DNA of 64,000 bases, taken from a virus. How positions within the stretch are numbered: the first letter of the stretch is position 1; every line of letters begins with the position of its first letter. The position numbers and the translations under genes are program-made. The stretch is taken from IMG/VR virus record IMGVR_UViG_3300037418_001469; one strand, given 5' to 3'. The notes under the pieces are model-generated. The model searched no databases, was not told where the DNA came from, and saw nothing but the letters and a program-made list of their open reading frames with translations. Below are positions 21,619 to 61,945 of this stretch, piece by piece.

Positions 21619-24600
21619 TTAGTAGGAAGTTCCTTTCCATGTGAGATTAGTAAACCTTTGGTCTCTTTTAACCCCTTCAATTGCTTTTTTAACTGCTGTC
21701 TCAACACTAGCTTGCAATGCCCCTGAATTTTGACCACCTTCAACATGAACAGTGATATTAAAATTAATATCTCCACCACTGCTATTGTTTGTTTGGCTAT
21801 TTCCACCAACTAGTGATGTTACCTGTTTATCTGTGAAAACTTTTTCACCTTGTCTAAGTACTGCATTTATTTCGTCAGGCTTAAGTCTGTTAGGACTAGA
21901 GAAGTTCATCATTCCTGCGATACCACCGTTATGATAAATATAACTCTTACCTACATAACCAGTTTTGCCTTTGTACTTGACATGTGCCCAACCGTCTTTA
22001 ACTCCTAAGTATTCTACTTTTGTACCTTTAGGTAGAACGCTTATTACATTGTTTCCTGTTTTGGCACTTGAACGGAAATTCAATGCTGTCTTAGTTGTTT
22101 TATAGGTTGTCTTCTTATCGTCCTTATTGTCATCTTTCTTGCCTTTATCATTAGAACTTGATTGAGTCTTGTGTATTTCTGCCCATGTCTTAGGACCAAC
22201 TATCCCATCTGCTGTCAATCCATGTTTCTTTTGGAACGCTTTTACAGCCGACTCTGTTTTAGGACCGAATATGCCATCTTGAGGAACTCCTACAGCTTTT
22301 TGGATTTCCTTAACATCTGCACCTGTGTCTCCTTTATTCACTGTTCCGTGTTTATGACCCGATGAACCACCTTTTGATGGAGCCTTTGGAGTATTAACCT
22401 TAGTGGAATCAGGTTTAGGTGTTGTGGTAGTACTACCTGTGCTAGGTGCTCCTGTGCCACCTGGAGCTGTACTACCTGGTGGTGAACCTGTTGCTCCTTT
22501 TCCTGATGTTCCACTAGGAGGACCACTAGGCTTATCTTTTTGAGGTGGGGTTGTAACTGTACCACCACCACTAGTAGGTGCGTCAGGTGAGCCTGCTCCA
22601 TTTTTACCAGTTGGGTCCCAATCTTTAACACCTTTACCCTTAGATACCTTGTATAACTCTTGGTCAATCTTGTATCCTTCAGGAGCATTAAATGTTTGGT
22701 CCTTCATGATATTGAACATGCCTTCAGTAGACGCTACTATTTCCTCGATTAATGGTAGGAATGGTGCTAGCATATTTTGTAGCTCTGTTCCAAAATCCTC
22801 GTTGTTGAACATATTAGCAATGTCGTCTGGATTTCCAGTAGTAGCCGCTTTTGTAACCTTAGAAATAAAACCATTAACTAAATCTAGAAGACCAGTATTG
22901 TTAAGTAGTGAACTAGCTAATGAAGAAGAAATTGCGCTAGCTATTGATTGTTTTACGCTATCAATAAATGCTTGTGCAGAATCCATATTACCTTGCATAC
23001 CACCTGATAATGCATTAGCAAACGCCTCTTGTATTCCTGATGATAGTGTATCGACCAATTGTATGGCGTTTTCTCTAGCCTCATTCTGAACATCACGAAG
23101 GTCATTCATCTTTTCCAAGTATTCATCTAGAGTCAAGGCTCCTGCTTTGAATGCTCCAACTACAGCAGAACGATACTCTTCTATTCCTGACATAAGTTGG
23201 TCTTGCAATCCTGCGATGATTTGAAGAGTGGCTAGTTCTTCATTAGCATCCATCTTACCACCATCTGCGACTTTCTTGGAAGATGCAGATTTAACACCAA
23301 CCTTATCTTTAACTATGCCTTTTTGAATCTCTTCTGACTTTTCCTTAGACAGATTACTTTCAGTAGTAACGGTATACTTTTTAGTTTTTTTATCATAAAT
23401 CAATGATGCTTCGACACCGTACTTATCATGTAATTTATCTTTAATCTTTTCAGCGTCTTTCTGTGAATAGCTACCACCTATTTGAGTCCTATAAGTATCG
23501 CCCATTTCACCGCTGTTGAGCTTAGATTTTGCAATACTAAGATTGTCTTTTGCTCGTTTTCTGTCTGAACTTGTTGTGTAAGCCTTTTGTTGGATATATC
23601 CATCAAGACCTTTTCCTGTCAATTCAAACATAGACTGAGCGTTTGCTAATCTTTTCTCCTCTAAGGCTCTTAGTTCCTCTTGAACTGCTACTGCCTCTTC
23701 AAGAACTGTATACCAAGCCTTAGTTCCCTCTGCAAAATCATTTAACACACCATTAATTTGAGACATTTTTTGGAACAAGATATTAATATCTTCTTGGTCT
23801 GCTGAACGCTTAGCAGATATATATCCACCTGTTCCTACTCCTGAATTTTGCCATACTTGACCAAGAATATTAGCCTTATTACGCTTAGTCATATAAGTGC
23901 TATTCATCTCGTTGAGTTCATTAGCAACACGCATATATTCAGGTGAGCCTGCTTCGCCTGATAAGCTTCTTAACTTGTCATATCCGCCTCTGATGTAGTT
24001 AATACCATTAACACTGTTTATTCTAGGGTCTGCGAGTTGCTTTGTATTTAGTTCTTTATCCCACTCACCCAATTTCTTGTTAGTCTCAGTGAGTGTCTCA
24101 ACCAACTTGTCGATAGCTTTTACAGCATTACTATACTCTTTGTATTCATCTTTGTTACCTGCCTTCAAAGCCTTGTTAGCTAATTCTACATTACTTTTAC
24201 GAGCAGTTCCTAGTTGCTTTAATTGTTCTACAGTTTCATATCTTTTTTGGTAGACAGTCTCTCTCTCCTGTATAACCCTATCTGCAACTGCTGTTCTACC
24301 TGATGTACCTAGTGGGTCTCTGATATTTCCTGCACCATAAGTCATGTTGGCATCTTTGTAGTATGCATCTTTTAGAAATTGTGGATTTTTTAAATCTGCC
24401 TCCGCTTGCATAGATTCAATGAAACTTCCTATCATAGCTTTCACTATGTCAAGATGGCTAGCTTCACCCTTAGTTATGCTAGTAGTTCCGTTAGCAGTTA
24501 TATTTTCATATACACCATCATATCTTTTTGCTCCAACATAATCTTTATGAGCATTTACACTAGTCAACTTAAGTGGCTGTCCACTTGAAGTCATGTTGTA

Positions 24601-27600
24601 CATCTTGCCATCTCCTGCATACATACCAACATGAGTTACTTTTCCGCCACTACCGAAATATATTAAATCTCCTTCTTTTAGTTCGGATTTGCTAACCTTC
24701 TTACCTTTATTGTCATTCCACATCATGTTTGATGAGCCTGTTCCTAGTTCGTATTTTCCAAATTCTCTAAAGAAATGTTGTACGAAACCTGAACAATCAG
24801 CCTTAGCTTTCTTTATAAAACTATCCCAGTCACCTGAGTCGTGACCACCACCCCACACATAAGTCAAACCTCCTTGAGATGGAGATTTTCCAACCATTCC
24901 TGCTAACATAGATAGAGGATTTCCAGAACTTGATTTAGATGATGTTGATGATGTGCTTGATAGTCCTAGTGAACTCCAAGTTTTATTTCCAACTATTCCA
25001 TCGGCATCTAAACCATGACTCTTTTGATATTTCTTTACAGCTTTCTCTGTTCCTGAGCCGAATATTCCATCAGCAGAAATACCAAGTGCTTTTTGCAATG
25101 CTTTAACATCGTCGCCTTTTGAACCTCTTCTGACAGTGCCACGACTACTGCTTACTGCTGTACTACCTCCTTTACCTGAGCCTGCATTAATTGATTGACC
25201 ACCAAGTAAGGCATCTTGAGAAATACCTGTCATACCTGAATAATATTTAGATACTCCACTTTGCCAGTAGTTGTTTAGACCATTAGGGTCATTATCTGCA
25301 CCAGATGGTGCATACTTCCTTTGAATTTCAGGAATAGTATTCAATCCTTGGTCAAAGTATAGTCTTTTCAATAAACTAGCTAATGCCTCTATCCCTTCAT
25401 CTAGAGATGCGAAGTTTTTAAGACCATTACTACCCATGATTCCGCCAACATTATTTCTATCTCTTACTGCCTTAGAGGTACCATTTCCAGTTTCATGCAT
25501 AGCAATTGCGGCTAGCAATCTAGGGTCAATGCCATATTGTGCTCCATATTTAGTAAAGGTATTTCCGTATCCTGCTAGCTTACCTCCTAGTTTACCATCA
25601 ATAGTCTTAGAATATTCAGAAACAGATGCATTGTTAGATGTTTCAGTAAGACCATTATTTACAGTAGTCTCTAATTCTTTACTAGACATTGACATTACTA
25701 GTTGCTTTCTAGCATTCACATATCCTGCTGTTCCTTTTTTGTAACCCATCTGTTCTAGATATGCATCTATCTTTTTATCCATTGGAGAGTCTTTAGTAAC
25801 ACCACTGCCATTATATGAAGGTATTTTCATAGCGTTGTTAAATGCCTCAGTTTGACCTGAGATAGAATCAGGATTTGATGCGGATTCCATAGCGAATTGT
25901 GCCCAATTTCCTAATACAGTATTTAGAGAGTCTGCACCTTTTAGAATCTTATCTCCTGCCTCAGTGAAATCATTCTTGATTAAGTCTTTAAGTGGACTAA
26001 TAAAGGCTTTGTCAAACTCAGTTCCCATTGTCTTATTGATTTCGTTATAAGCCTCATTTAACTTATCTGCATCATCACCATATGTATTTAATGCTGACAT
26101 TAATTGCTCGTAGTTATCTAAACCTCTATCACGAATTGACTCTAGTTTGCTTTGTCTGATTTCGTTTACACCTTGACCAGTAACAGCACTTCTCACTTGA
26201 GATAGTGAATCAACCATTGCCATGTCATTCTTCATATTGAATATTTCTTTATTAGCATCCTTAACTAGCTGAGTTCTATTTTGAACTCTTTCCCATACAT
26301 CAGCATACTTATCAGAATTTAACACCATTTCTTTTAGTTGTTGTGCTTGCTCGTATACATCTACTGTAGTTGATGATACGCTATCTTGAATTGATGTTTG
26401 TTTTTCCAAAAGTTCTTTATATGCAGATTGTTGTGCAGTTAATCCTTCTTCACCTGGATTATACAGATAGTTTAACGAGAAGTCTTGACCTGGGTTTTGT
26501 GATGCTATGCTATTCATTTTACTAGTAACAGAGCTAAGCTCTGCTCTATATCCCTTTAGCAATTCGGATGATACTTTAATCATGCTACTTTGAGCACCGA
26601 TTTGTTCTTTTGAATTAGGTTCAGCCATTTGTACCATAGCTCTACCTGTACCAACAGCACTATTTATCTTAGATATCTGAGCCTCCATAATTCCAATGCC
26701 ACTAGATGCCACTAATAGTTGTGCAGTATATTGTTTAATTGCATATTCTTGCTGTCTGTATGCCTGCTCTTGTTGTAAGCTAATATCAGTAAGACTATCC
26801 AACGCATCAGTACCACCTGCTAGCTTCATAACAAATTCAGCTATGCCCTTTAATATATATGCCTCATTCATCTTTGTTTGAACTTGTTCGTCAGTTAATC
26901 CTAAACCGTCACCTTTTTCTCCTTTTTTAGGTTTTGGTTTCTTCCATCTTTCGATATCTGCATCAGAAGGTGCTTGATAATTATCTAAAAATTCATCTGT
27001 CTTGCCTGATTCTTTAGCTTTCAAGTATTCTAGGTTAACTTCATCAATTTGCTTTTGAGTAATGCCATTTTTCATTGCTGTGTCTATGTATTTCGACATG
27101 TCATTCTTAATTGAACCAACATTAGCCTCAACTGCATTTTTTCTATCTAGCATTTTTGCTCTTTCGTCAGAAATTCCACCTAGACTTTGTTGAGTTGCAT
27201 TAATTTTTTCTTTTAGAGAGGCAATTGAATCAACACCGAAGAATTTAGCATCAATATTTTCAATATTAAATCCTAGGAGTTTCATAGCTCTACCAATCTC
27301 TTTTGTAATTTCTTGTGTCTTAAGTAGTTCGTCGTTATACTCTAAGACATAGTTAAGATTGGTCTCCCATTGGTTTTTAATTTCTAATGATTCATCCCTA
27401 AAACCATTTTCTCTATATGCATTAAATTTATCCATTTGCTCTTTGTCGCCTAGCTTTGCTGTGTATTCCTTCTTGGACATTTTTCCATCTTTACCAAGAA
27501 GATGATACTTTACAAAGTCTTCTTTGTCTTCGCCACTGCCTTTTGAATAAAATTTTAATCCATACTCGTCTTGGAATTTTTTTCTACCTTCGGAAATTCT

Positions 27601-30600
27601 TTTGTTCCTTTCAATAGCCTTAGTGCTCATATCAGTTCCCATAATTGACGCATTTTTGCTTTCTTTCATGAACTGAATGTTGTCTAGTATAAAATGGTCA
27701 ATCTCAGTGTTCTTCTTTTTAGATATTTCTTTATCGCCTAACATAGCCTTGGAATTTTCTTGAAGATTTTTGTTTTGTGTTTTGTAATCTGAGTCAGCTT
27801 TCTTTTTTGCATTATCAATTACTTTATTAACAACCCACCAAGCAGTTGCTAATGCACTACCTATAACAAATAATCTTGACAGTATCAACCCAAAACGATA
27901 AAAAGAAGGACCCATTTTCTTGAACCATTCACCAAACGCTTTTAAAGCACCGCCACTTCTTTCAGCTACTCCTGCTCCTGCTCTCCTCATGCCACCATTT
28001 CTAAATGATGCTATCATTAAAGCATCACCAATAAAATTACCTACACTACCAATAGCCTTTCTTCCGCCACTAGCTACACTTCTACTAGCATTTGATATAT
28101 TTCCACGAATAATGGTTCCTCTGCTAGGCATAGGACCGTCTTCGAGTTCTCTGAGACCTTGTTGCATAGCTATACGATTGCTTCTAAATATTCCTTGAGC
28201 ACCATATCTTCCATAGAAAGTACTTACATCTCTAGAACCAACTGGCATAACTCTTGGGTGAGGTGTTCCGCCTAATATAGGCATGCTACCTAAAATATTT
28301 GTAGCCATGATAGCATTGTTAGGGTTCATAACTCTTGGGTGAGGTGTTCCTCCTAATACAGGAATACTATTTACTTTTCTACTATTAGTAGTTCCTACAG
28401 GAATCATTGGTAGCATATTACTAGCAATAATAGCACCATTTTGAGCAACCGTAGTTGCAACTTTAGGAGCAACTCTAGATGTAGATATTGGAATTGGAGC
28501 ACCTGATATTACTGTGCCTCCAACTGTGCCTGCAATCTGTTTGAATCCTGCTCTACGACCAGTTTTGCTTTGCAACCAATCTCCTATTGCTGAGCCTACT
28601 CCTGGAGTTAGTTTGTTGACTACAGTAGTTAAACCTTTAAATGCAAGCATTAATCCTGCTAGTTCCATAGCCATTTTAGGTAGGTTTGCAAAGATAGGCA
28701 AATTATCACTGAACACATCACTTAGTTTTTGCACAACACCTAGGACTCCGTTGATAGAACTAACGAATAGAGTTAATCCTTTCACAACTAAACCTATAGC
28801 ATCCATAAGTCCAAGTCTTGCTAATTGCTGAACCAATTCTTTAACTTGTTCACCAAGTTCCATAAAGTTTCTCTTTAGTGTATTTGAAAAAGTATCCCAA
28901 GATTTTTCTAATGCATTTGGGGTATCTTTATTTGCTTTATCAAACTGATTAACATAATCTGACGATATAGCTTCTAAAAACTTTGTCATTTTTGGTGTCA
29001 TAGCAGAAGACTTACCAGTAAGACCTGCCAATCCTTCTGCAACTTCGGCTTGGTCTTTTTGTAGAAGAGTTGGAAACTTAGCCATCACAGCATCAGCTAA
29101 TTTCTTAGGTGTGTTATATTCTTCTTTGCTTGGGTCAATATCCATTTTATCAAGTGCATTTTTAACTGTTGGATTGTTTGGTTTTGCTAAAGAACCAAAA
29201 AACAATTTACCAATCTGAGTCATATTAGCACCAGTAGCATCAACATCACTAAGATTATATGAACCTAACATACCTGCTACTAGTTTAGGGTCAATACCTT
29301 TCTTAATAGTATCAGGCGCTAGCTCTGACATGGCATCAGCAACAGCATTTGTGTTTACACCCTTACCCTTCATTATAGCCATATAATCTAATAATCTATC
29401 AATTTTACCCATATGGCTTGTTTCGCCTTGTGTATACATGGCTTGATATAGGGACATAACATCTTGAGAAATAGCACTTACTTCTTCTGCTGATGCATTG
29501 CCACCTGTTGAAACTGCCGAATATTGTATGATTTTATCGACCATTTGTTTTTGCATCTTAGGGTCAATTTTACCGTCTTTACCTTTAATTAGGTTAGTTC
29601 TCGCCAAAACTTGAGATTCAACAGGTAATACTGTTGACATAGTGCTAACTCCATATTTCTGACCAACATCAAATGCATTCTCTTGGATGGCTGTTCTTAT
29701 CTCATTTGAGCCTCTACCAAAAGACTTATAGGTGTTACTTACCGCACCAGTATTGAGATTTTGAGTAATCATCCCTACCTGAGCAAGTTGAGCATCAAAG
29801 TTAATCATATCTTGAATAGATTGAGCGATAGCTTGTGACATCATACGGAAACCACTAGTAAACAATGTGTAAACTCCAATATTTCGTAGCATGTTTCCTG
29901 CTAATGCTTTAAAACTTCTATCTCCACGCTCTACTTTATCTCCAAGGCTAGTATATTCATATGTCAATGTTCTAACAGAGCGAATATGTCCTTCGTCATC
30001 ACGATAATTAATTGCGTATGCTCTTTGGAAATTCTGTTTGTTTGCCTTAGCTTCAGCTTGATTTCTTGGATGAATCTGTTTATTTAGGATTTCTAGACTA
30101 TCAGATAGGCTAACATTTGGATTCCTTAATTGCGCTTCTAAGTCAATACCTCTGTATTCCTTACTGCCTCCGTAACGAATAATACCCTGATTATAGTCTG
30201 ATGACCTTTGTTGTCTTGCTGTTAGTCCATTATTTCCTGAATTAACATTAGCACTGAGTGATTGTCGTGCTTGCTGTTCTGCATTTTGTCTAGCTAATTC
30301 TCTTGCAGGGTGAAATTTAGGAAGACTACTAGCTTTACCCATAGGCATATTATTTAATTTTTCTTGTAACTTTATCGCCTGTTCAATCTGCCTAGTAAGT
30401 TGAGAGACAGGATGATTTCTAGACAAGTTACTAGCTTTACCAGTAGGAATACTGCTTAGTTTTTCTCCAAGATTTTTAGCCTGTTCCATTTGCTTGACAA
30501 GCTGAGAAACTGGATGGTTAGGATTCAGCTTTGTAGCTTTGCCTACAGGAGTACTATCTAATTTCTCCTGCATTTTTCTAGCCTGTTCCATTTGAGATAA

Positions 30601-31998
30601 TAGTTGAGATACATGGTGATTTTTAGGTAAGTTGCTTACTTTACCAGTAGGAACAGAACTTAGTTTTTCTTGTAGTTTTATAGCTTGTTGCATTTGGTTT
30701 ATAAGTTGTGTAACAGGGTGATTTGCATTCAGCTTAGTTGCTTTACCCATAGCTGTATTACTCATCTGTTCATTTAATTTTTGAACTTGCTTAGCTTGAG
30801 CAACTCTTTCATCCATAGCCCTTTTTGCGCTAGCTTTAGAGATTCCTTGTTTAGCATCGAAATTAGGGTCATAGTATGATGAGGTTCTCTTTCCCATATC
30901 AGCTAGATGAGAATGCAATCTCTCCATATCTCTTTTTTGCTGTTCAGCTTCACGCATTTGTTTTTCATAATTAGCTTTAGTAATTTGCTGTGAAACCTTT
31001 TGTTGACCAGTGGGATTATTTGCAATTCTAGTTAATGACCTTTGGATTTGAGGAGTCATGAAGCTTTCTTGACTCATTTTTTGTCTAGCTATTTCTGTAG
31101 CTTGCATAGCTCTTTTTAATTGACGAGCAAGAGTTTCCTGTTCTTTAATCTCTTTCATTAATTGTTGCTTGTAATCATTAGCACCAACTTTGAACTTAGA
31201 ACCATCCTCTTTGTAGCCATACATATCGCCACTTTTTGTTTTACTCTTTTTTGCTCTCTCTAATTCAGACCTTAGTCTACTTAATTCTGTCTCACCTTTA
31301 ATTTGTTCTTTAAGATTCTTAGCCCTCTGTTGGTATTGTTGGAAAGAATCAAAGTAGTCCCTTTTAGCCTCTTGTATAGATGTTTGCCTGCTTCTGTTGT
31401 TTTGCTGTTGAGAACCGCCATTAGCAGTTTGTGAGTTTCTTTGCTCTCCAAACCTTCTCATTCCTCTTGTGTGGTCTTGTACTGCACTAACACTAGCTTT
31501 TACCTCAGCCTTAATAGACTCAATTTGAGTCTTAACTGCTTTAATATCAGCCTCATTGAGCTTTAAGCCTACTGTCATTGTTGCTTTAGTACCGCCAACC
31601 TCTTTTTGTACTTTTGCTTTTTCTCCTGCACCGACATTGAGGGAGGTATTAATACTAACTGTCTTCTTGTCATTAGATATACTATTTAGTTCATTTTTAA
31701 GCGCACTAATACGACTCTGTAGTTTTCTAATACTAGATTCGTCTACAGAAACAGGAATTTTAATATGTGGGGCTTGGCTTTTGTTGTACCCATCTATTGT
31801 TCTTTTTACTTCACCTTGTAGTTTAGTAATATCAGCATTTACTGATAATGGAACTCTAATTCCATTGTTCTTATTATTGTCAAAGTGTTGCTTAATTTGT
31901 TTGTCTACTTCTTTTACCTGTGTCAATAGTTTATTTATTGAACCTGTATTTAACTGCAATTCCGTTTTTATAATATACTTAAAATTATCTTGAGCCAT
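21619..31998 (-). CDS. tape measure protein with glucosaminidase/lysozyme-like, 2x PG-binding, NlpC/P60, SPOR-like and SH3b domains
   Basis: 3459 aa, helical; YGIDPRLLAAIAMHETG; DCSGFV..HVGMY; two DGIFG..T..AVK.(Y/F)QK.HGL.ADGIVG..TW; LNFRS..GWAHV..GYV. Confidence 0.9.
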   Translation of the reverse strand: MAQDNFKYIIKTELQLNTGSINKLLTQVKEVDKQIKQHFDNNKNNGIRVPLSVNADITKLQGEVKRTIDGYNKSQAPHIKIPVSVDESSIRKLQSRISALKNELNSISNDKKTVSINTSLNVGAGEKAKVQKEVGGTKATMTVGLKLNEADIKAVKTQIESIKAEVKASVSAVQDHTRGMRRFGEQRNSQTANGGSQQQNNRSRQTSIQEAKRDYFDSFQQYQQRAKNLKEQIKGETELSRLRSELERAKKSKTKSGDMYGYKEDGSKFKVGANDYKQQLMKEIKEQETLARQLKRAMQATEIARQKMSQESFMTPQIQRSLTRIANNPTGQQKVSQQITKANYEKQMREAEQQKRDMERLHSHLADMGKRTSSYYDPNFDAKQGISKASAKRAMDERVAQAKQVQKLNEQMSNTAMGKATKLNANHPVTQLINQMQQAIKLQEKLSSVPTGKVSNLPKNHHVSQLLSQMEQARKMQEKLDSTPVGKATKLNPNHPVSQLVKQMEQAKNLGEKLSSIPTGKASNLSRNHPVSQLTRQIEQAIKLQEKLNNMPMGKASSLPKFHPARELARQNAEQQARQSLSANVNSGNNGLTARQQRSSDYNQGIIRYGGSKEYRGIDLEAQLRNPNVSLSDSLEILNKQIHPRNQAEAKANKQNFQRAYAINYRDDEGHIRSVRTLTYEYTSLGDKVERGDRSFKALAGNMLRNIGVYTLFTSGFRMMSQAIAQSIQDMINFDAQLAQVGMITQNLNTGAVSNTYKSFGRGSNEIRTAIQENAFDVGQKYGVSTMSTVLPVESQVLARTNLIKGKDGKIDPKMQKQMVDKIIQYSAVSTGGNASAEEVSAISQDVMSLYQAMYTQGETSHMGKIDRLLDYMAIMKGKGVNTNAVADAMSELAPDTIKKGIDPKLVAGMLGSYNLSDVDATGANMTQIGKLFFGSLAKPNNPTVKNALDKMDIDPSKEEYNTPKKLADAVMAKFPTLLQKDQAEVAEGLAGLTGKSSAMTPKMTKFLEAISSDYVNQFDKANKDTPNALEKSWDTFSNTLKRNFMELGEQVKELVQQLARLGLMDAIGLVVKGLTLFVSSINGVLGVVQKLSDVFSDNLPIFANLPKMAMELAGLMLAFKGLTTVVNKLTPGVGSAIGDWLQSKTGRRAGFKQIAGTVGGTVISGAPIPISTSRVAPKVATTVAQNGAIIASNMLPMIPVGTTNSRKVNSIPVLGGTPHPRVMNPNNAIMATNILGSMPILGGTPHPRVMPVGSRDVSTFYGRYGAQGIFRSNRIAMQQGLRELEDGPMPSRGTIIRGNISNASRSVASGGRKAIGSVGNFIGDALMIASFRNGGMRRAGAGVAERSGGALKAFGEWFKKMGPSFYRFGLILSRLFVIGSALATAWWVVNKVIDNAKKKADSDYKTQNKNLQENSKAMLGDKEISKKKNTEIDHFILDNIQFMKESKNASIMGTDMSTKAIERNKRISEGRKKFQDEYGLKFYSKGSGEDKEDFVKYHLLGKDGKMSKKEYTAKLGDKEQMDKFNAYRENGFRDESLEIKNQWETNLNYVLEYNDELLKTQEITKEIGRAMKLLGFNIENIDAKFFGVDSIASLKEKINATQQSLGGISDERAKMLDRKNAVEANVGSIKNDMSKYIDTAMKNGITQKQIDEVNLEYLKAKESGKTDEFLDNYQAPSDADIERWKKPKPKKGEKGDGLGLTDEQVQTKMNEAYILKGIAEFVMKLAGGTDALDSLTDISLQQEQAYRQQEYAIKQYTAQLLVASSGIGIMEAQISKINSAVGTGRAMVQMAEPNSKEQIGAQSSMIKVSSELLKGYRAELSSVTSKMNSIASQNPGQDFSLNYLYNPGEEGLTAQQSAYKELLEKQTSIQDSVSSTTVDVYEQAQQLKEMVLNSDKYADVWERVQNRTQLVKDANKEIFNMKNDMAMVDSLSQVRSAVTGQGVNEIRQSKLESIRDRGLDNYEQLMSALNTYGDDADKLNEAYNEINKTMGTEFDKAFISPLKDLIKNDFTEAGDKILKGADSLNTVLGNWAQFAMESASNPDSISGQTEAFNNAMKIPSYNGSGVTKDSPMDKKIDAYLEQMGYKKGTAGYVNARKQLVMSMSSKELETTVNNGLTETSNNASVSEYSKTIDGKLGGKLAGYGNTFTKYGAQYGIDPRLLAAIAMHETGNGTSKAVRDRNNVGGIMGSNGLKNFASLDEGIEALASLLKRLYFDQGLNTIPEIQRKYAPSGADNDPNGLNNYWQSGVSKYYSGMTGISQDALLGGQSINAGSGKGGSTAVSSSRGTVRRGSKGDDVKALQKALGISADGIFGSGTEKAVKKYQKSHGLDADGIVGNKTWSSLGLSSTSSTSSKSSSGNPLSMLAGMVGKSPSQGGLTYVWGGGHDSGDWDSFIKKAKADCSGFVQHFFREFGKYELGTGSSNMMWNDNKGKKVSKSELKEGDLIYFGSGGKVTHVGMYAGDGKMYNMTSSGQPLKLTSVNAHKDYVGAKRYDGVYENITANGTTSITKGEASHLDIVKAMIGSFIESMQAEADLKNPQFLKDAYYKDANMTYGAGNIRDPLGTSGRTAVADRVIQERETVYQKRYETVEQLKQLGTARKSNVELANKALKAGNKDEYKEYSNAVKAIDKLVETLTETNKKLGEWDKELNTKQLADPRINSVNGINYIRGGYDKLRSLSGEAGSPEYMRVANELNEMNSTYMTKRNKANILGQVWQNSGVGTGGYISAKRSADQEDINILFQKMSQINGVLNDFAEGTKAWYTVLEEAVAVQEELRALEEKRLANAQSMFELTGKGLDGYIQQKAYTTSSDRKRAKDNLSIAKSKLNSGEMGDTYRTQIGGSYSQKDAEKIKDKLHDKYGVEASLIYDKKTKKYTVTTESNLSKEKSEEIQKGIVKDKVGVKSASSKKVADGGKMDANEELATLQIIAGLQDQLMSGIEEYRSAVVGAFKAGALTLDEYLEKMNDLRDVQNEARENAIQLVDTLSSGIQEAFANALSGGMQGNMDSAQAFIDSVKQSIASAISSSLASSLLNNTGLLDLVNGFISKVTKAATTGNPDDIANMFNNEDFGTELQNMLAPFLPLIEEIVASTEGMFNIMKDQTFNAPEGYKIDQELYKVSKGKGVKDWDPTGKNGAGSPDAPTSGGGTVTTPPQKDKPSGPPSGTSGKGATGSPPGSTAPGGTGAPSTGSTTTTPKPDSTKVNTPKAPSKGGSSGHKHGTVNKGDTGADVKEIQKAVGVPQDGIFGPKTESAVKAFQKKHGLTADGIVGPKTWAEIHKTQSSSNDKGKKDDNKDDKKTTYKTTKTALNFRSSAKTGNNVISVLPKGTKVEYLGVKDGWAHVKYKGKTGYVGKSYIYHNGGIAGMMNFSSPNRLKPDEINAVLRQGEKVFTDKQVTSLVGGNSQTNNSSGGDINFNITVHVEGGQNSGALQASVETAVKKAIEGVKRDQRFTNLTWKGTSY
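30290..30750 (-). repeat. five 102-bp/34-aa repeats in TMP N-terminal region
   Basis: GK(A/V)(T/S)xLxxNHxVSQLxxQ(M/I)EQAxKxQEKL recurring at a 102-bp period. Confidence 0.85.
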
Positions 31999-32083
31999 TA
32001 GTATACCTCCTCATAAAATATACGTTCTTAAAGGAATAGGGGGATAGTTATATAAACCAACCCCCTAGCTAATCCCCTTACTA

Positions 32084-32521
32084 CTAATCGTAGTCAACAC
32101 CACTAAATTCATAGTCATATTCAGTTCCGTCTTCTCCCATAGCATCTTCGTAGTAATCATCGTCCGCATCATCAAATATGATTACTTCTTCGTGTTCCAG
32201 TGCACCTTTATGAACATTGTTTGTTCCTTTGCTGTTTTTCTTAGCTCTATTTTCGACCTCTTTGCTCATATTTTCTACCCACTTATCTAGTAGGTCGTCA
32301 TTGTTTATTATTTTCATAGTAGGTCTCTCATGGTGCTCATACACACTATCATAAAATGAGAACCAGTAAGCTAGTGCTACTTGAGAAGGATTCCAATCTG
32401 CTACTATTCCACCGAACAACGGTGAACCTGTATCCTTACTTGCTTTCCATCTTGCTCTCCATTCTGCTCCAACTTCCCCTTGCCCTCTAGCTATTTCTCT
32501 TAGAACCCCGTTCTGAGCCAA
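32084..32521 (-). CDS. tail assembly chaperone, C-terminal part (pre-TMP)
   Basis: position just before TMP; LREIAR..EWRARW..YDSVYE..DDDLLDKW; TTG start with no visible RBS. Confidence 0.6.
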   Translation of the reverse strand: MAQNGVLREIARGQGEVGAEWRARWKASKDTGSPLFGGIVADWNPSQVALAYWFSFYDSVYEHHERPTMKIINNDDLLDKWVENMSKEVENRAKKNSKGTNNVHKGALEHEEVIIFDDADDDYYEDAMGEDGTEYDYEFSGVDYD

Positions 32522-32743
32522 AAGACAATTGATAAGATTTTGAAGTTTGTTTCATAATCAATATTTATTCATACAGTGCGAAACATAGGATTTTTATGTG
32601 GGCAAGGTTGAATGTAGTTACTAATATATTAGGCTTGTTATTAAGTGCTTGCCTATGCACATTGAGATACCTTACTTACCCTCACTACATTCAATTAAGA
32701 ATTATCATATGTCTAGACACTATCGTATGACTCTATTGTTTTA

Positions 32744-33415
32744 TTACTCCTCGCTACTTTCTTCTTCAATTGTTTCTTCTTCTAATTCAGAGGGGTCAAC
32801 AAGGAAGTCGGCAGGAAGACCATTAATAAATGTTAGGAATTGATATACAATTAGGTTAACAGTTGATTGGTCCTCTTCTTCTTTAAAATCTTTATATGTA
32901 GCCCACACAGGCTTTCCTGTGTCAGCAAATTCTGTACACTTATGAATCAGAAATGACATTTTAGACTCGTCAGCCTTTGCCTCAGCAGTATTATTGAAAT
33001 ACTTTTGTTTCTCTTGCTGTAGACCAAACATCTCGTCACGCAATTCATTAATCTTAGCCTCAATAGGAGCAATATTCTTTGCTGTATCCATCTTAGATAA
33101 AATAACTAGTTGCTTGTCAATTTCTCCACGAATTTTTTCAATTCTATCATCGTCTTTACTAGTCCATAATTTTTTCTTTTTAATTAATTCATCCATCTCA
33201 CGATTAGTAGGAATATCGTCCATACATGCTTGGTTGAATACCTTTGAATATTCCCAATCAGCTAAACGATTTTCTTCTACCTTTGGGTAGCGAATTTGTA
33301 GCAATCCATACTTTTCACTATCAAATACACGCCTACCAGTTTGAACCTCTACCATCTTTTCACGCTTTTCCTTGTTGGACATTTCTTGGCTTTCTTTTTT
33401 CTTAGTCTCTGCCAT
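32744..33415 (-). CDS. tail assembly chaperone, N-terminal part
   Basis: between tail tube and TMP; helical with acidic C-terminus. Confidence 0.65.
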   Translation of the reverse strand: MAETKKKESQEMSNKEKREKMVEVQTGRRVFDSEKYGLLQIRYPKVEENRLADWEYSKVFNQACMDDIPTNREMDELIKKKKLWTSKDDDRIEKIRGEIDKQLVILSKMDTAKNIAPIEAKINELRDEMFGLQQEKQKYFNNTAEAKADESKMSFLIHKCTEFADTGKPVWATYKDFKEEEDQSTVNLIVYQFLTFINGLPADFLVDPSELEEETIEEESSEE

Positions 33416-33457
33416 TCCTTTGCACCTTCCTTTTAATTGATATGTAAAAACAAAAAA

Positions 33458-33481
33458 GAGACATTATTTGAAAATGTCTCT
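33458..33481 (-). terminator. intrinsic terminator
   Basis: GAGACATT/AATGTCTC stem followed by a U-tract on the minus strand. Confidence 0.6.
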
Positions 33482-33495
33482 CATGGTCAATTAGG

Positions 33496-33756
33496 CTATT
33501 CGTCATTCGTATTATCAAAGTCAATTTGCTCGTCATAACGAGGTGTATAGCTCACTTCGTATTTTTCGAGTTCTTCTGACATTTTACGAATTTCATCATT
33601 TCCTGACCTGAGAATCATCTTCCTGATTTTTGCAAATTGCTTAGGCTCAATGTTCGCCATCTCCATCAGAGATAAAGAGTCTTTAAAGACTTTCTTAATA
33701 CTCTTAGAGACTGCACGATTGAGTCGCTCTTTGTCCTCATGAATGCTCATTAGCAC
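33496..33756 (-). CDS. hypothetical protein
   Basis: AAGGAG RBS, 86 aa. Confidence 0.65.
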   Translation of the reverse strand: MLMSIHEDKERLNRAVSKSIKKVFKDSLSLMEMANIEPKQFAKIRKMILRSGNDEIRKMSEELEKYEVSYTPRYDEQIDFDNTNDE

Positions 33757-33860
33757 TACTCCTTTCCTTCTTAATCCTTTAAACCTATTTGTAGCCTTCT
33801 ATATTAAGTTTTTATATAGAACGTATGCACTAGCCCCAAAGAGGAACTAGTGCCATTATA

Positions 33861-35408
33861 TTACGATACTTGGTTAGCGTTTAAGTATTTGTCAGTGATT
33901 GTAATGTTGTGAGCCAAGAACTCAAAGTTTTGAGTAGCATCACTATCAACTCGAACATCCCATGATTCTGATTGTGGAATTAGGTTTTTAACATAGATAG
34001 TTTTAACCGCATACTTATCAGGGTGTCCAGTAGCTAATTTAGCACGCTTAACATCAGTTTCACGATAGATTTTAACTAGTAATCCCTTGTTCTTAACTAA
34101 ATCGTCAAGAGCAATTTCGTTAGCACTTGCTAAGTTGCTATATCCTGCGAAACGAGCCATTAGTTCTAAGTCTGAATCTTTAAGTTCTAGAGATACAGAT
34201 ACATTAACTGGTAATGCTAATGGACGGTCATATGGATATAAAGAACCTAACTCAGCTAGTGGCTCACGCTGTAATGGAACAGAGATACGAGCAGATTGTA
34301 CACGAGTTGTACGGTTAGCGTCTACAGTTCCGTTAGCATCTACTAGGTAAAGTTCGATTTGACCTTCTTTGATACCGCCTGCGATTTCAGGGTGTGGGTC
34401 TTCTAAGGCAGGAACAGGAGCAAAGAATTTTCCATTGTTTGCAGATGTGTAACGAGCCTTAATTAAATCGCCTGATGCAGATGCAGGAGTTAAAGTTAAA
34501 GTAGTGCCTGAAACAGTAAAATCAGTACCCTCAACTAGAACAGTACCATTTTTAGTTACTTTAAGCATTTTATTACCATTTGCTAAAGCAAATGGAGTGT
34601 TGCTTAATGTATGAGTAGCTGAGCCTGTTGATAGAAACTCGTCAACTACCATTTGAGATGCGCTGTTTAAGAACCAACGCTTGTTGTCAGTTTCTAAACG
34701 ATAAGATGCAGTTGCTACGCCTTGAACTTGGAATGAGAAGTCAATGTTATTAGCAAACACTCTCTCCATGTACATAGTACGAGCAATAGCGCCATTTAGT
34801 CCGTCACCTGATTGTTTAACTGGTACGAAAATATCAGCCTTAGCTAATTCGAAATCATTTACTGAAATAGACGCAAATGGTCTGCTATCAGTAATATCGG
34901 CTTGTTTAACAATACTTCCACTTGGAGTTAAACTAGCAATTTGAATTGCTCCCGCAGGCAGTGAACTTGCAATACCTACCTTAGCACTTGCGTTTGCACT
35001 TGATGCTACAGGGTTGAGGTAAACTAACTGATTTCCTGTTGCATTAGCAGTAATAGTAGCACCTTCAAATAGTACTGAGTGACCAGTTTTTGCATAGTAA
35101 CGACCTGGGTTTACTTTAAGTTGTAGAGTGCCTAACGCACCACCACTAGGAACTGCTTCTACTTGACAACCATATCCTTTATTTGATAATAGTCCCAATA
35201 GTTCATTTGTTCCATTTTCATTTGAATCAACGGATACATCAACTTGAGGTACATCGTCAACAATTTCAACAATATTCAAAGTACCTAGTTCTTTCATGTC
35301 TTCTGTAGTTAAACGAGAAGAACTACCTAATGCTTGCACACGATTTGCTTGAGCATCGTCAATAAATGGTGCAGTACCAGTATATCTTACACGACTAGCT
35401 TTTGCCAT
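33861..35408 (-). CDS. major tail tube protein
   Basis: synteny, strong RBS, highly expressed codon usage (CGT/GCT), 515 aa with inserted domains. Confidence 0.7.
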   Translation of the reverse strand: MAKASRVRYTGTAPFIDDAQANRVQALGSSSRLTTEDMKELGTLNIVEIVDDVPQVDVSVDSNENGTNELLGLLSNKGYGCQVEAVPSGGALGTLQLKVNPGRYYAKTGHSVLFEGATITANATGNQLVYLNPVASSANASAKVGIASSLPAGAIQIASLTPSGSIVKQADITDSRPFASISVNDFELAKADIFVPVKQSGDGLNGAIARTMYMERVFANNIDFSFQVQGVATASYRLETDNKRWFLNSASQMVVDEFLSTGSATHTLSNTPFALANGNKMLKVTKNGTVLVEGTDFTVSGTTLTLTPASASGDLIKARYTSANNGKFFAPVPALEDPHPEIAGGIKEGQIELYLVDANGTVDANRTTRVQSARISVPLQREPLAELGSLYPYDRPLALPVNVSVSLELKDSDLELMARFAGYSNLASANEIALDDLVKNKGLLVKIYRETDVKRAKLATGHPDKYAVKTIYVKNLIPQSESWDVRVDSDATQNFEFLAHNITITDKYLNANQVS

Positions 35409-58392: not shown

Positions 58393-58485
58393 AAGACCCA
58401 AACAGCAAAACAATATAGTGCGATTGGTTCGCAATTTTTCTACTACGAAAATCTAAGAGGTTCAAATCCTCCTATAATGGGTCTT
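58393..58485 (+). ncRNA. ACAGCAA-family RNA 2 with tRNA-like D, anticodon-like and T arms
   Basis: AAGACCCA/TGGGTCTT stem; TAGTGCGATTGGTTCGCA; GAGG-TTCAAAT-CCTC. Confidence 0.65.
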
Positions 58486-58505
58486 GTCAAACGTATCTAA
58501 ACGTT

Positions 58506-58610
58506 GGCACATACAGCAATCCACTAACCTATACAGGAAAGTTCTCTACATTATGTAGACTTTAAAGATTGCTCGTGAAGAGCACGAAAAAATTTATCAT
58601 AGCTAGTGCC
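58506..58610 (+). ncRNA. ACAGCAA-family RNA 3
   Basis: GGCAC/GTGCC stem followed by ACAGCAA; internal hairpins. Confidence 0.55.
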
Positions 58611-58669
58611 TAGTAAACTAGAAGTCTATCTCCCCCAAGAGTCCACGTCGACGGGGAGATAAAACGTCC

Positions 58670-58726
58670 AGACATTAACAGCAACACAAAACAAATTTTC
58701 TTTGGATGAAAAATTATAATATGTCT
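58670..58726 (+). ncRNA. ACAGCAA-family RNA 4, abutting the RBS of the DUF2828 gene
   Basis: AGACAT/ATGTCT stem followed by ACAGCAA. Confidence 0.55.
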
Positions 58727-58733
58727 AGAAAGG

Positions 58734-60254
58734 ATGATTTATATGTTAAACCACTTAAAAAATGAAACTAATGTAGCATATACTACTAACGGTGCTAAGG
58801 CACTAAAAACATCTAACTCTTATCTTGTTGATTTCTTCGCATCATCTGGTGCACTGAGAAATCGTTCAAAAGAAGATATTAATCAATTGTTCTCTAAAGC
58901 ATTTGCAGAGGATAAATTATTGGCTATGAAAGCTTTATTCTATACTAGAGACATTCGTGGCGGACAAGGTGAGCGTGAAACATTTAAAACTATTATTAAA
59001 CAATTAGCTTTTACACATCCAGAAGTATTAGCTAGTAATATTAATTTAATTCCCTACTTTGGTCGATATGACGACTTACTAGTTTTGCTAGACACTCCTC
59101 TTGAAAAATTAGCTATGTCTATTATCAGAGCGCAACTACTTGAGGATTTAGATTTAGAGGCTCCTTCGCTATTAGCAAAATGGTTGCCATCTGAAAACGC
59201 ATCTTCTCGTGAAACTAAGCGTTTAGCTAAGAAGGTAGTATATAATTTAGGATTAACTCCTAAGCAATACCGTAAAACATTAACAACACTTCGCAAGAAG
59301 ATTAATATTGTTGAAGGTTTGATGTCAGCAAAGAAATTCAATGAAGTTGAATACGATAAAATTCCTTCTAAAGCAGGTCTGATTTATCGGAATGCATTTT
59401 ACCGAAATGACGGAGAACGATATACTGCATTTGTTGATTCACTTGTAAAGAGCGTGGAAAATAACGACAAAGAAACTAAAATTAATGTTAAGACATTGTT
59501 TCCATATGAGATTATTGGCAAATTCCCAATTACTATGACTACAGCAAATAACCGTCGTCATTATAATGCAGTAGTTGGTCATGCAAGCTCTCAAGATGAA
59601 AAGCTACTAGATGCTATGTGGAAGTCATTACCTGATTTTATTGGAGATAATTTTGATAACGCATTAGCAGTAGTAGATACATCAGGTTCTATGCGTGGAT
59701 TACCTATTCAAGTAGCACTTTCTTTAGGTCTTTACCTTGCCGAAAGAAATAAAGGAATTTTCAATAATCACTTTATTACATTCAGCAAAAAACCTGAATT
59801 ACAAGAAGTGTTAGGTGATACTTTAGGTGATAAGCTAAGAAATATGTCTCAAGCTGATTGGGACATGAATACTGATATTCAGTCTGTATTTAGCCTAATC
59901 CTTAACACTGCAATTAAGAATAATGTTCCGCAAGAAGAGTTACCATCTAAGATTTTCATTATCAGCGATATGGAATTTGATAAATGCGTAGGAAGTGGAA
60001 ACAATAAAACCGTCTTTGGTGAATTGGCTAATGACTTTGCTAAGTTTGGTTATGTTATTCCTGAACTAGTTTTTTGGAATGTTAATGCATTATCTACACA
60101 TTTTCCTGTTAAATACAATGAAACTGGAACTGCCCTTGTATCAGGTTGTTCGCCAACCGTCTTTAAGAATCTACTTGCAGGAAAAGAAATGACACCATAT
60201 GCAATGATGCTAGATGTACTTAATAATGAGCGTTACGATATTGTAATGGCATAA
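58734..60254 (+). CDS. DUF2828-family TROVE/Ro60-like protein with C-terminal vWA domain
   Basis: TTNGA..S..VDFF, RDIRGGQGER, AKWLP; MIDAS-type VVDTSGSM, IISDMEFD, LVFWNV. Confidence 0.75.
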   Translation: MIYMLNHLKNETNVAYTTNGAKALKTSNSYLVDFFASSGALRNRSKEDINQLFSKAFAEDKLLAMKALFYTRDIRGGQGERETFKTIIKQLAFTHPEVLASNINLIPYFGRYDDLLVLLDTPLEKLAMSIIRAQLLEDLDLEAPSLLAKWLPSENASSRETKRLAKKVVYNLGLTPKQYRKTLTTLRKKINIVEGLMSAKKFNEVEYDKIPSKAGLIYRNAFYRNDGERYTAFVDSLVKSVENNDKETKINVKTLFPYEIIGKFPITMTTANNRRHYNAVVGHASSQDEKLLDAMWKSLPDFIGDNFDNALAVVDTSGSMRGLPIQVALSLGLYLAERNKGIFNNHFITFSKKPELQEVLGDTLGDKLRNMSQADWDMNTDIQSVFSLILNTAIKNNVPQEELPSKIFIISDMEFDKCVGSGNNKTVFGELANDFAKFGYVIPELVFWNVNALSTHFPVKYNETGTALVSGCSPTVFKNLLAGKEMTPYAMMLDVLNNERYDIVMA

Positions 60255-60284
60255 TAAATGGAGGGGTAAAACCCTCTTATACGT

Positions 60285-60385
60285 GGAGAGCCTTGGCGGT
60301 GTAGTCCAACGAGACTATTGGTGGTTCGATTCCATCTGAAAACAGTGGCATGCAAATAATAGAGGGTTCGATTCCTTCCTCTCTC
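60285..60385 (+). ncRNA. tRNA-like RNA with two T-arms
   Basis: GGAGAG/CTCTC ends; GGTGG-TTCGATT-CCATC and GAGGG-TTCGATT-CCTTC; no anticodon arm. Confidence 0.55.
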
Positions 60386-60447
60386 AAAAACGTGAATGGC
60401 ATATTTTTCTATATAAGCAGAAGACTAAGACAACACACAAAAATACG

Positions 60448-60562
60448 TAGACACTTACAGCAATCAATCCTACAGGCACTTTAGGTTGGAGGTTAAAATC
60501 CTTCATGACTGAATCAGTCATTAGCTCAAATGTTAGAGCAAAAGTTTTGGATGATGTGTCTA
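60448..60562 (+). ncRNA. ACAGCAA-family RNA 5 with circularly permuted tRNA module (YrlA-like)
   Basis: TAGACAC/GTGTCTA stem; order is T arm, closed stem ATGACT/AGTCAT, then D arm TAGCTCAAATGTTAGAGC. Confidence 0.7.
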
Positions 60563-60568
60563 GATAAA

Positions 60569-60640
60569 CACTCTATAGTATAACGGTTAGTACATGGCTC
60601 TCATAAGGCTATGGTGGAAGTTCGATTCTTCCTAGAGTGA
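60569..60640 (+). tRNA. tRNA-Met/Ile (CAT)
   Basis: CACTCTA/TAGAGTG acceptor, loop CTCATAA, GTTCGATT. Confidence 0.75.
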
Positions 60641-60642
60641 TA

Positions 60643-60715
60643 TGCGGTGAGGACAAATGGTAAGTCACTAGTCTCATAAGCTAGAGATAGTTGGTTCGAT
60701 TCCAACCACTCGCAA
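60643..60715 (+). tRNA. tRNA-Met (CAT), bulged acceptor stem
   Basis: CTAGT-CTCATAA-GCTAG; GTTGG-TTCGATT-CCAAC. Confidence 0.7.
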
Positions 60716-60828
60716 TTGTAGGGTTGTAAGAGGTGAAAGTCCTCTACCCTTCACAAAACGTGTTGGTGGCGATTCTTAGGCTACTAGGTTGACAACCTTG
60801 TACGGTATACAGTGCAGAATAGTTGTTC

Positions 60829-60899
60829 GCTCTTATAGTATAATGGTATTACAGTTGACTTGTAATCATCTGATGGCAGTTCGATTCTGTCTAGGAGCA
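60829..60899 (+). tRNA. tRNA-Thr (TGT)
   Basis: GCTCTTA/TAGGAGC, loop CTTGTAA. Confidence 0.85.
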
Positions 60900-60915
60900 T
60901 CTTCGCCCATACGTA

Positions 60916-61224
60916 TCGTGTGAGTGACAGAGACTATACTACCGTCCGTACCCCCTGTATCGGGTCGATAATTGAAAACGGACAACCGCAATATCCAATA
61001 AGACCTAATCTAAGGCGATACACCTGACATGAGCACAGTAAAGGTTGAGGATAGAGGCAAGCTAGGTTGGTTTTTGGTATGAGCCTAGCATTTCTAATTG
61101 GTGTTGCACTACCTTATCTCAAATGTGCCCTATACAGATAGGAGGTCGTGCTCCTTATAATTAACCTGATAGATGGATGCTCTGCTCCCCATCGGCAAAG
61201 TTGGCAGGCAACGTTAAAACACGA
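60916..61224 (+). ncRNA. large structured RNA, family unknown
   Basis: TCGTGT/ACACGA closing stem; GTCCGT/ACGGAC, GAGCAC/GTGCTC, GCTAGG/CCTAGC; no ORF. Confidence 0.5.
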
Positions 61225-61232
61225 AATATCAA

Positions 61233-61303
61233 TGGGGTGTGGTATAATGGTAACACCTACGGTTTGGGACCGTATGTTGCGAGTTCGATTCTCGCCACTC
61301 CAA
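61233..61303 (+). tRNA. tRNA-Pro (TGG)
   Basis: TACGG-TTTGGGA-CCGTA; T arm GCGAG-TTCGATT-CTCGC. Confidence 0.85.
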
Positions 61304-61347
61304 TAAGTCTTTTATCATCTGTGCTTCACAAAACGTGAGGTGATAAA

Positions 61348-61779
61348 ATGACAAAGAAAATTGAATATGATACAAATGAAAAAGGTTGCATGCTAGTAAC
61401 ATCGCATTACAAGTCTAACACAGGTCATGTGCAGTTAAGAAGAGATGGTAAGGTGCAATGGTTACATAGATATGTTTACGAGCAAGAATTTGGAGAGATT
61501 CCAGAAGGAATGGTTGTAAGACATAAATGTGACAACCCATCGTGTATGAATATTGACCATTTAGAATTAGGAACCCATGTTGATAATGTCAATGATAGAG
61601 TGAAACGTAGAAGGTCTGCAACAGGAACTTCAAATGGTCGCTCTAAATTAACAGAAGAACAAGCTAGGTTTATCAAACACGACAATGAGTACTCTAATGC
61701 AGAGTTATCTAGAATGTTTAATATTAATGCCAAAGTTATTTATGAAATAAAACGAAATTTAAAATGGAAACATGTATAA
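61348..61779 (+). CDS. HNH homing endonuclease
   Basis: HR.VYE..VVRHKCDNPSCMNIDHLELGTHVDNVND and C-terminal HTH; inserted in tRNA array. Confidence 0.9.
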   Translation: MTKKIEYDTNEKGCMLVTSHYKSNTGHVQLRRDGKVQWLHRYVYEQEFGEIPEGMVVRHKCDNPSCMNIDHLELGTHVDNVNDRVKRRRSATGTSNGRSKLTEEQARFIKHDNEYSNAELSRMFNINAKVIYEIKRNLKWKHV

Positions 61780-61794
61780 GTGTTTCCTTACTTT

Positions 61795-61868
61795 GGACCC
61801 TTAGTTTAATGGTAAAACTCTTGGCTCATAACCGAGGTTCGCTAGTTCGATTCTAGCAGGGTCCACCA
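61795..61868 (+). tRNA. tRNA-Ile2 (CAT, lysidine type) or Met
   Basis: GGACCCT/AGGGTCC-ACCA resembles Bacillus tRNA-Ile2; loop CTCATAA. Confidence 0.85.
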
Positions 61869-61879
61869 AATATTATCAT

Positions 61880-61939
61880 GTCGGGTAGGTCAAACGATAC
61901 TAGTCACTCGTGAGGTGAGATTCCTCCCACTCGGCTCCA
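61880..61939 (+). ncRNA. truncated tRNA-like RNA ending in CCA
   Basis: GTCGGGT/ACTCGGC-TCCA; GAGG-TGAGATT-CCTC T-like arm; 60 nt. Confidence 0.45.
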
Positions 61940-61945
61940 AATTAT

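Follow-up and report, generated by a model that had tools for sequence, protein, structure and literature searches.

A −1 frameshift that yields the long form of the tail-assembly chaperone is among the most conserved recoding events of phages. The lambda G/GT pair and other tail-assembly chaperones are made by −1 programmed frameshifting (Levin 1993; Xu 2004, 2013, 2014, reviewed in PMC5009743), and fused forms joining an N and a C module have been reported as the rule (PMC5009743, PMC12846349). Programmed bypassing is defined by matched flanking codons, with CUU as a classic shift-prone codon; essentially two systems are known to use it, and the discovery of more has been anticipated for a long time (PMC5009743). 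The mitochondrial 'byp' elements of Magnusiomyces and related yeasts are ribosome-skipped, hairpin-forming inserts flanked by matched codons (PMC5009743; 10.1101/2022.08.31.505936). Here we describe a putative chaperone locus of a soil phage (IMG/VR virus record IMGVR_UViG_3300037418_001469), in which two open reading frames (ORFs), ORF1 and ORF2, are separated by a gap that closes into one long hairpin between two leucine codons. The window is the whole 64,000-nt stretch that was analysed, and the genes of the chaperone region all lie on its minus strand. Our favoured reading is a low-level translational bypass from CUU to CUA across the hairpin-closed gap, in place of the usual −1 frameshift; judged from sequence comparison, we give it a probability of roughly 40%.

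ORF1 and ORF2 start 894 nt apart and are therefore in the same frame. As the initial annotation described, the 222-nt spacer between them (32743..32522) contains in-frame stops, and the two ORFs share no slippery-site overlap. The two terminal stops of ORF1 are followed by 9 further in-frame stops before the ORF2 frame opens at 32551. TTG is the only canonical start of ORF2, and the sequence upstream of it, AAATCTTATCAATTGTCTT, contains no GGAGG-like site, in agreement with the earlier remark that a ribosome-binding site is not visible there. The features on which the comparison was built are as follows:

32744-33415, minus strand: ORF1, 223 aa, putative short form of the tail-assembly chaperone (G-like, N module, TAC-N)
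32741-32746, minus strand: the two stop codons of ORF1, TAA TAA, located within the hairpin
32801-32803, minus strand: CTT, Leu205 of ORF1, candidate take-off codon
32777-32798, minus strand: 5′ arm of the closing helix, within ORF1, codons for DPSELEEE
32522-32743, minus strand: 222-nt spacer, upper part of the hairpin, absent in L006, L012, L014, L015, L016 and L024
32504-32526, minus strand: 3′ arm of the closing helix, including TTG (32521-32519) and the G-run GGGG (32509-32506)
32501-32503, minus strand: CTA, first conserved codon of ORF2 (L of LREIARG), candidate landing codon
32084-32521, minus strand: ORF2, 145 aa, putative T-like C-terminal chaperone module, conserved part from 32503
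21619-31998, minus strand: tape-measure-like protein, 3459 aa, directly downstream of ORF2, with a role assigned from size and position

We compared 15 related loci (numbered with the prefix L) at the DNA level, drawn from 74 homologs of ORF1 and 26 of ORF2. The ORF1 homologs, all 128-238 aa, come from Paenibacillus- and Chengkuizengella-type prophages and from soil metagenomes, on contigs of up to ~178 kb. No match was obtained by blastn and tblastn against 50,697 phage records, and 401 genomes from the order that includes Chengkuizengella yielded a single prophage, which was already known. Four arrangements occur among the loci: a one-ORF fusion, a −1 overlap, a short gap, and a long gap. 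In L044 and L045 (IMG/VR contigs of 97 and 180 kb; L045:104-1959), a separate gene B of 346 aa, which overlaps the preceding N-only gene at ATGA, holds a diverged N-like domain and an ORF2-like domain in one ORF, so the long form is encoded there by a duplicated gene and not by recoding. The junction in gene B reads ...FVRGF-DQGT-LRALARN, and in L045 four residues lie between the INGL equivalent and LR, as in INGL-PADF-LR of the window. In L023:2040-2160 (metagenome contig Ga0302277_1001653; 41% identity to ORF1), the T-like frame and ORF1 share an 82-nt overlap in −1, and a candidate slippery heptamer C_CCA_AAC right after INGLS would give ...FINGLSP-KLIRTIARG, a classical frameshift layout. 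The check suggested in the initial annotation, whether homologs join both halves near INGL/LR, is thus positive in distant relatives, by the single ORF of L044/L045 and the −1 overlap of L023.

The remaining two arrangements have neither an overlap nor a slippery site. In L006, L012, L014, L015, L016, and L024, the conserved start of ORF2 (L-R-x-I-A-R-G) lies 15-30 nt after the ORF1 stop without an insert, and the frame of ORF2 relative to ORF1 is 0, +1, or −1. Eight loci, including the window, show this same layout with an extra 130-200 nt. From CTT to CTN, the gap spans 67-102 nt in insert-free loci and 229-303 nt in insert-bearing ones, the window having 297 nt; all three remainders (0, 1, and 2) occur when its length is divided by 3, and the frame relation is arbitrary. 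Comparison of these loci indicates that the 222-nt spacer is a clade-specific insertion into an arrangement that already was not a frameshift. Slippage by −1 or +1 near the ORF1 stop was also considered for L012, L015, L016, and L024, where no usable site was found. The locus therefore resembles lambda G/GT in part, with two ORFs directly before a tape-measure-like gene, a short form expected to be abundant, and a second module without a reliable start of its own; among the relatives, L023 keeps the −1 overlap and heptamer, and L045 encodes the fusion outright. It differs in that the window and 13 relatives have 67-303 nt with stops between the modules in an arbitrary frame, and in that neither sequence nor fold gives a convincing match to the named chaperone families.

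At the DNA level, constraint falls on the two leucine codons at the foot of the hairpin. ORF1 is conserved up to ...FINGLPADFL (residue 205), in the form F[IV]NGLP[AS][DE]FL, and is followed by a variable acidic tail. The Leu after PADF is CTT in 14/14 loci, while the neighbouring codons vary synonymously (GCC/GCT/GCG/GCA and TTC/TTT) and five other conserved Leu columns of ORF1 each use 3-5 codon types, with CTT in 0-1 loci. The candidate landing codon is CTA in 7 loci and CTT in the other 7, never TTA or TTG; in the genes of the window TTA and TTG make up 52% of Leu codons, and four other conserved Leu columns of ORF2 show 5-6 codon types. With these control columns included, matched candidate take-off and landing codons as in bypassing, readable by one tRNA, are found at every one of the 14 loci. 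The landing codon and the Ala codon of IARG are always the same distance apart, and indels occur everywhere upstream. Read upstream from the landing codon, the ORF2 frame closes after 1-9 codons (in L006 a TAA immediately precedes it), and in L001, L014, L017, and L018 there is no ATG, GTG, or TTG between the last stop and the conserved N-terminus of ORF2. A hop from the last Glu codon to GAA of LREIARG was tried as another pair of sites; it suits the closest clade only.

The gap between these codons is closed by a helix. A single hairpin of 297 nt (32800-32504, minus strand) has the 222-nt spacer as its upper part, and its foot lies between the Leu codon CTT of ORF1 and the first conserved ORF2 codon CTA. 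In the window the arms (32798-32777 / 32526-32504) pair with a free energy (dG) of −21.9 (p=0.003), and the ~22 nt immediately following CTT pair with the ~22 nt immediately preceding CTN in all 14 loci, with dG from −17 to −25 and p<=0.003 in 13 of them. Cognate arms pair more stably than non-cognate arms (−22.7 vs −15.4 kcal/mol), and 0/20000 permutations reached the observed sum (P<5e-5). The arms co-vary across the 14 loci, with compensatory changes visible. The whole gap folds as one closed rod in each locus, and 0-9 nt separate its outer pair from either Leu codon; for the window this fold (309 nt) has −71.4 kcal/mol and z=−2.9, with 0/100 shuffles as stable, and in its minimum-energy form CUU itself pairs with the AAG of CUA-AGA.

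Both arms also carry coding or signal-like sequence. The 5′ arm supplies the conserved Pro-Ser of the ORF1 tail (CCC UCN). The 3′ arm contains a G-run (GGGG, GGAGGG, or GGGGGG) that lies 2-6 nt 5′ of the landing codon whatever the frame; a reading of this run as Gly codons was rejected, since the spacing between run and landing codon is not divisible by 3. A local hairpin in the ORF2 leader showed weak covariation. Separately, CCGACUUCCUU (32801-32812), which holds the candidate take-off codon, is complementary to GGGGAAGUUGG (32469-32479) in ORF2 with three G-U pairs; this pairing is not conserved in L014 and is probably due to chance.

On the bypass reading, most ribosomes would translate ORF1 through the acidic tail and then stop, giving an abundant short form of 223 aa. 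A minority with peptidyl-tRNA(Leu) on CUU (32803-32801) would lose codon pairing, get beyond the 297-nt hairpin, and pair again on CUA (32503-32501) just 3′ of the G-run. AGA GAA AUA... would be decoded next, and the product would be a 343-aa fusion that reads ...INGLPADFL-REIARGQG..., and the 222-nt spacer would be a self-folding insertion atop a hairpin that measures 67-102 nt in other relatives. The predicted product is close in length to the 346-aa one-ORF fusion of L045, and the four-residue spacing of INGL-LR is identical. We infer the hop itself, its efficiency, and the passage of ribosomes over ~300 nt from these arrangements. Such a bypass would explain why codon choice is invariant at both sites, why the frames are arbitrary, and why stops reach up to the landing codon, and it would account for the missing canonical starts in L001, L014, L017, and L018 and for the general need for a fused N-C chaperone. 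Within the same scheme, elongating ribosomes might cross the foot of the closed hairpin from CUU to CUU/CUA at any gap length from 67 to ~300 nt in a shunt-like manner, without threading through the gap, and this crossing would replace the −1 frameshift in setting the ratio of short to long form; we regard this specific version as unlikely.

Several of these features recall T4 gene 60. The gap starts in a stem, whose helix sets in 2-8 nt past CUU at all 14 loci; shortly 5′ of the landing codon there is a G-rich element that resembles the gene 60 mini-Shine-Dalgarno; the peptide before take-off is conserved; and ribosomes that did not bypass would terminate soon after. There are also differences. 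Gene 60 has a stop or hungry codon after take-off, whereas the codons here are ordinary sense codons, and its gap is 50 nt, whereas the gap here is 67-303 nt and forms one closed rod. Low efficiency would be expected at this locus, and the non-bypassed product would itself be functional. The byps are similar in being hairpin-forming inserts flanked by matched codons. However, they are tens of nt long, numerous, and mobile, with a codon without tRNA after take-off, whereas there is one locus per genome here, with a long AU-rich rod and ordinary following codons.

The insert adds an upper rod to the closing hairpin, for which the following features were defined:

32559-32738, minus strand: upper rod, with an outer helix that runs from 5 nt past the second ORF1 stop to 3 nt short of AUGAAA
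32608-32694, minus strand: inner 11-bp stem (32694-32684 / 32618-32608), with compensatory and G-U changes
32660-32645, minus strand: small hairpin within the inner stem, loop AUAGGCAA
32600-32607, minus strand: CCUUGCCC, internal loop, complementary to GGGCAAGG in ORF2
32487-32555, minus strand: AUGAAA (32555-32550, no Shine-Dalgarno) and the mini-ORF that it opens, 22 codons, ending at UAG (32489-32487)
32478-32485, minus strand: GGGCAAGG, codons G-Q-G of ORF2, partner of CCUUGCCC and ~122 nt downstream of it

The layout of the rod is identical in 8/8 insert-bearing loci, though the sequences of L020 and L013 are unrelated to that of the window. Its nesting depth exceeds most or all shuffles in each of the eight, and the fold from the ORF1 stop to AUG gave z=−2.3 in the window and −1.35 to −5.6 over the eight loci. 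The internal-loop motif is present in all eight at a relative position of 0.73-0.80, as CCUUGCCC in seven and as CCGUGCCC in L013. CCUUGCCC and GGGCAAGG are perfectly complementary, and the pairing is kept in every insert-bearing locus, the pair in L013 being CCGUGCCC:GGGCAUGG; the covariation consists of one double change only and is not decisive. The pairing could act as a barrier or a mask. AUGAAA is likewise invariant in the eight loci, 0-6 nt from the last pair of the rod and opposite the ORF1 stop, and it is not in a fixed frame with ORF2. In six of the eight, the mini-ORF terminates no more than ~12 nt from the conserved ORF2 start (CUNAGA).

Individual elements of the spacer had been listed in the initial annotation, and these fared less well when considered one by one. 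The 11-bp inverted repeat is present at 32694-32684 / 32618-32608, but it is weak alone: a perfect inverted repeat of at least 11 bp arises in 1.2% of shuffles of the 222-nt spacer (p~0.012), and 33 comparable repeats occur over the 64-kb window. The complementarity of GGCAAG (32653-32648) to CTTGCC (within 32607-32600), listed as a possible pseudoknot, was found as described. The spacer with its flanks folds at z=−0.67. Comparison between loci, rather than any of the single listed features, indicates that the structure of the spacer is real.

The conserved rod bears on whether the insert has a role at all. The 222-nt spacer could be a selfish or neutral palindromic insertion, like a miniature inverted-repeat transposable element (MITE), with ORF2 expressed as in the insert-free relatives; this is compatible with the other readings. 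The insert is indeed present in only part of the family and sits in the apical part of a pre-existing hairpin, and its sense and antisense strands fold equally well, so that the RNA strand shows no asymmetry. Against this, the insert is a single copy in the 126-kb phage record and its conserved core motif occurs at this locus only in IMG/VR, which is why a mobile MITE-like palindrome was rejected as a candidate. The shape of the rod is also kept by compensatory change despite the unrelated sequences of L020 and L013, and the invariant AUGAAA and the loop motif (CCUUGCCC in 7/8 loci, CCGUGCCC in L013) at fixed spacing speak in the same direction. An insertion without a role is therefore quite improbable. 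A small protein encoded in the spacer was rejected as well, as there is no conserved ORF on either strand, and the coding strand of the spacer has no promoter or terminator.

Removal of the hairpin at the nucleic-acid level was also weighed, by RNA cleavage and ligation at the foot or by polymerase jumping between the CTT/CTN repeats, either of which would give a minority of joined mRNA. Length-independent removal would suit a closed hairpin that varies from 67 to 303 nt and has short repeats at its foot, and the equal folding of the rod on both strands also speaks for this reading. However, the Rfam scan of 31500-34000 at E<=10 found no intron or ribozyme, its three hits being chance matches outside the spacer, and ARAGORN found no tRNA-like element in the gap. 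No RtcB ligase was found in the 74%-complete record, and the 3-nt repeat, which half of the loci have in imperfect form, is not long enough to permit realignment. We know of no such excision pathway for bacterial mRNAs, and we consider this explanation very unlikely. The splicing suggested in the initial annotation finds no support on similar grounds: a group I or II intron was rejected because there is no Rfam match and because the insert-free relatives, with 67-102 nt between the halves, keep the stop and arbitrary frames and have no continuous ORF. The intron and mobile-element readings are not supported.

The bypass reading itself faces a number of objections. The slow or stop codon after take-off, a key feature of gene 60, is missing, the codon being variable and ordinary (GTT, ATT, GTA, TCA, GCA, GAA, TCG, CAA, or TTC). 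A stable rod of 229-303 nt is far longer than the 50 nt of gene 60 and should hinder a sliding ribosome, and several loci have CUU triplets in the 3′ arm, 17-27 nt before the landing codon, that are possible decoys. AUGAAA and the mini-ORF ending near the conserved ORF2 start have no role in a bypass. In some homologs an ATG or TTG coincides with the conserved N-terminus or immediately precedes it (MARG, MIARG, MGILR), one homolog reads MK... from AUGAAA through into ORF2, and the closing helix fits masking of a ribosome-binding site equally.

The main alternative is translational coupling, in which ORF2 would be a separate protein translated in dependence on ORF1, with no fusion, and the hairpin and AUGAAA mini-ORF would couple the two. 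Coupling by unmasking and by termination-reinitiation is a familiar mechanism, for example in the long-range pairing between coat and replicase genes of RNA phages. The likeness lies in the 3′ end of the upstream ORF, which pairs just before the downstream ORF, and in the out-of-frame stops that cluster at the downstream start. The helix would hide the G-run, as a Shine-Dalgarno sequence, against the CCCUC-type codons of the ORF1 tail, and ribosomes on the tail would open it. ORF2 would then start at a weak codon, either TTG 32521 or AUA 32494-32492 (11 nt after GGGG), and the out-of-frame stops at its start (CUAAGA, AUAGCUAG) would cause termination and re-initiation. In the insert clade the rod would set the ORF1 stop beside the AUGAAA without a Shine-Dalgarno, and the mini-ORF would relay ribosomes to the ORF2 start.

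Coupling gives a use to the invariant AUGAAA at the end of the rod and to the mini-ORF end, and insertion of a rod would be harmless under masking or coupling; CCUUGCCC could mask GGGCAAGG just downstream of the start. Starts near the N-terminus are found in L013 (ATG 8 nt after the G-run), L020 (TTG), and L016 and P0095-P0099 (ATG), and P0083 is the homolog that reads MK... straight into ORF2. In addition, no fused ORF was found among the 74 ORF1 homologs or the close ORF2 homologs. On the other hand, coupling leaves unexplained why the ORF1 codon is CTT in 14/14 loci and why the ORF2 Leu is CTA or CTT only (CUW), and unlike known cases there is no dependable start codon here: AUA, AUU, or AUC starts 11-15 nt from the G-run would be needed in many loci. 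The mini-ORFs of L002 and L013 stop after 2 and 5 codons, and the distance from the landing codon to the Ala of IARG is constant while indels lie upstream. The C module would also have to work unfused, against the rule of fused N-C forms (PMC5009743, PMC12846349) and the distant relatives described here. We treat coupling as a serious alternative, only slightly less probable than the bypass.

Ribosomal bypassing or another recoding event had been suggested in the initial annotation from a near-repeat, ATTAATGGTCTT (32827-32816) and ATCAATTGTCTT (32533-32522), 294 nt apart. The repeat is present but at chance level (p~0.12), and it is not reproduced in the relatives, whose best ORF1 matches lie elsewhere and are also non-significant. 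The corresponding take-off and landing pair, from the CTT of INGL to that of INCL, could not be retained: the Leu of INGL is TTG in 8/15 loci, and in L001, L005, and L018 the INCL triplets either lie in another frame or have a stop after them. The general idea of bypassing is instead carried by the comparative signature of an invariant CUU, a CUU/CUA partner, and a co-varying closing hairpin. The locus is probably a recoding locus, judging from this signature, with take-off and landing codons other than the INGL/INCL pair.

The identification of ORF1 and ORF2 as the N and C modules of a tail-assembly chaperone is itself tentative and is drawn from their position before the tape-measure-like gene, the −1 overlap of L023, and one database name, a UniRef homolog called 'Tail assembly chaperone'. 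Neither ORF matches Pfam, PHROG, or NCBIfam. The AF2 model of ORF1 (pLDDT confidence score 80.6) is mostly helical with a short beta-hairpin and has no convincing fold match; the best Foldseek E was 0.5 (PDB) and 0.02 (BFVD), and a named chaperone appeared at E 0.27 only. The model of ORF2 (pLDDT 73) is helical. The two ORFs directly precede the 3459-aa protein, as the two ORFs of the G/GT type precede the tape measure. This protein contains Glucosaminidase, NlpC/P60, two PG_binding_1, and SH3_3 domains (cell-wall hydrolase domains), and its length implies an unusually long tail.

Other observations concern the surroundings of the locus. A terminator-like hairpin with a T-run and an overlapping promoter-like site lie just upstream of ORF1 (33456-33490, minus strand), so the chaperone and tape-measure genes may use read-through or a promoter of their own. 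Further upstream, a 515-aa protein (33861-35408) has an Ig-like CBM_X2 stretch just under the Pfam cut-off; a role as major tail protein is possible, with no family match in support. Ten tRNA genes are clustered at 58411-63253, including tRNA-Arg(UCU), the reader of the AGA after the candidate landing codon, and no tRNA-Leu.

In summary, one family presents a natural series of a fused gene, a −1 overlap, a 67-102-nt hairpin gap, and a ~300-nt hairpin gap. If coupling were the true explanation, the phage would have replaced a stoichiometry set by frameshifting with structure-gated re-initiation and an unfused C module. The candidate signals are sharply defined and mutable, namely one CUU, one CUA, two helix arms, and AUGAAA. 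Together with the natural series, they make it directly testable whether bypassing works from a sense codon over long structured gaps.

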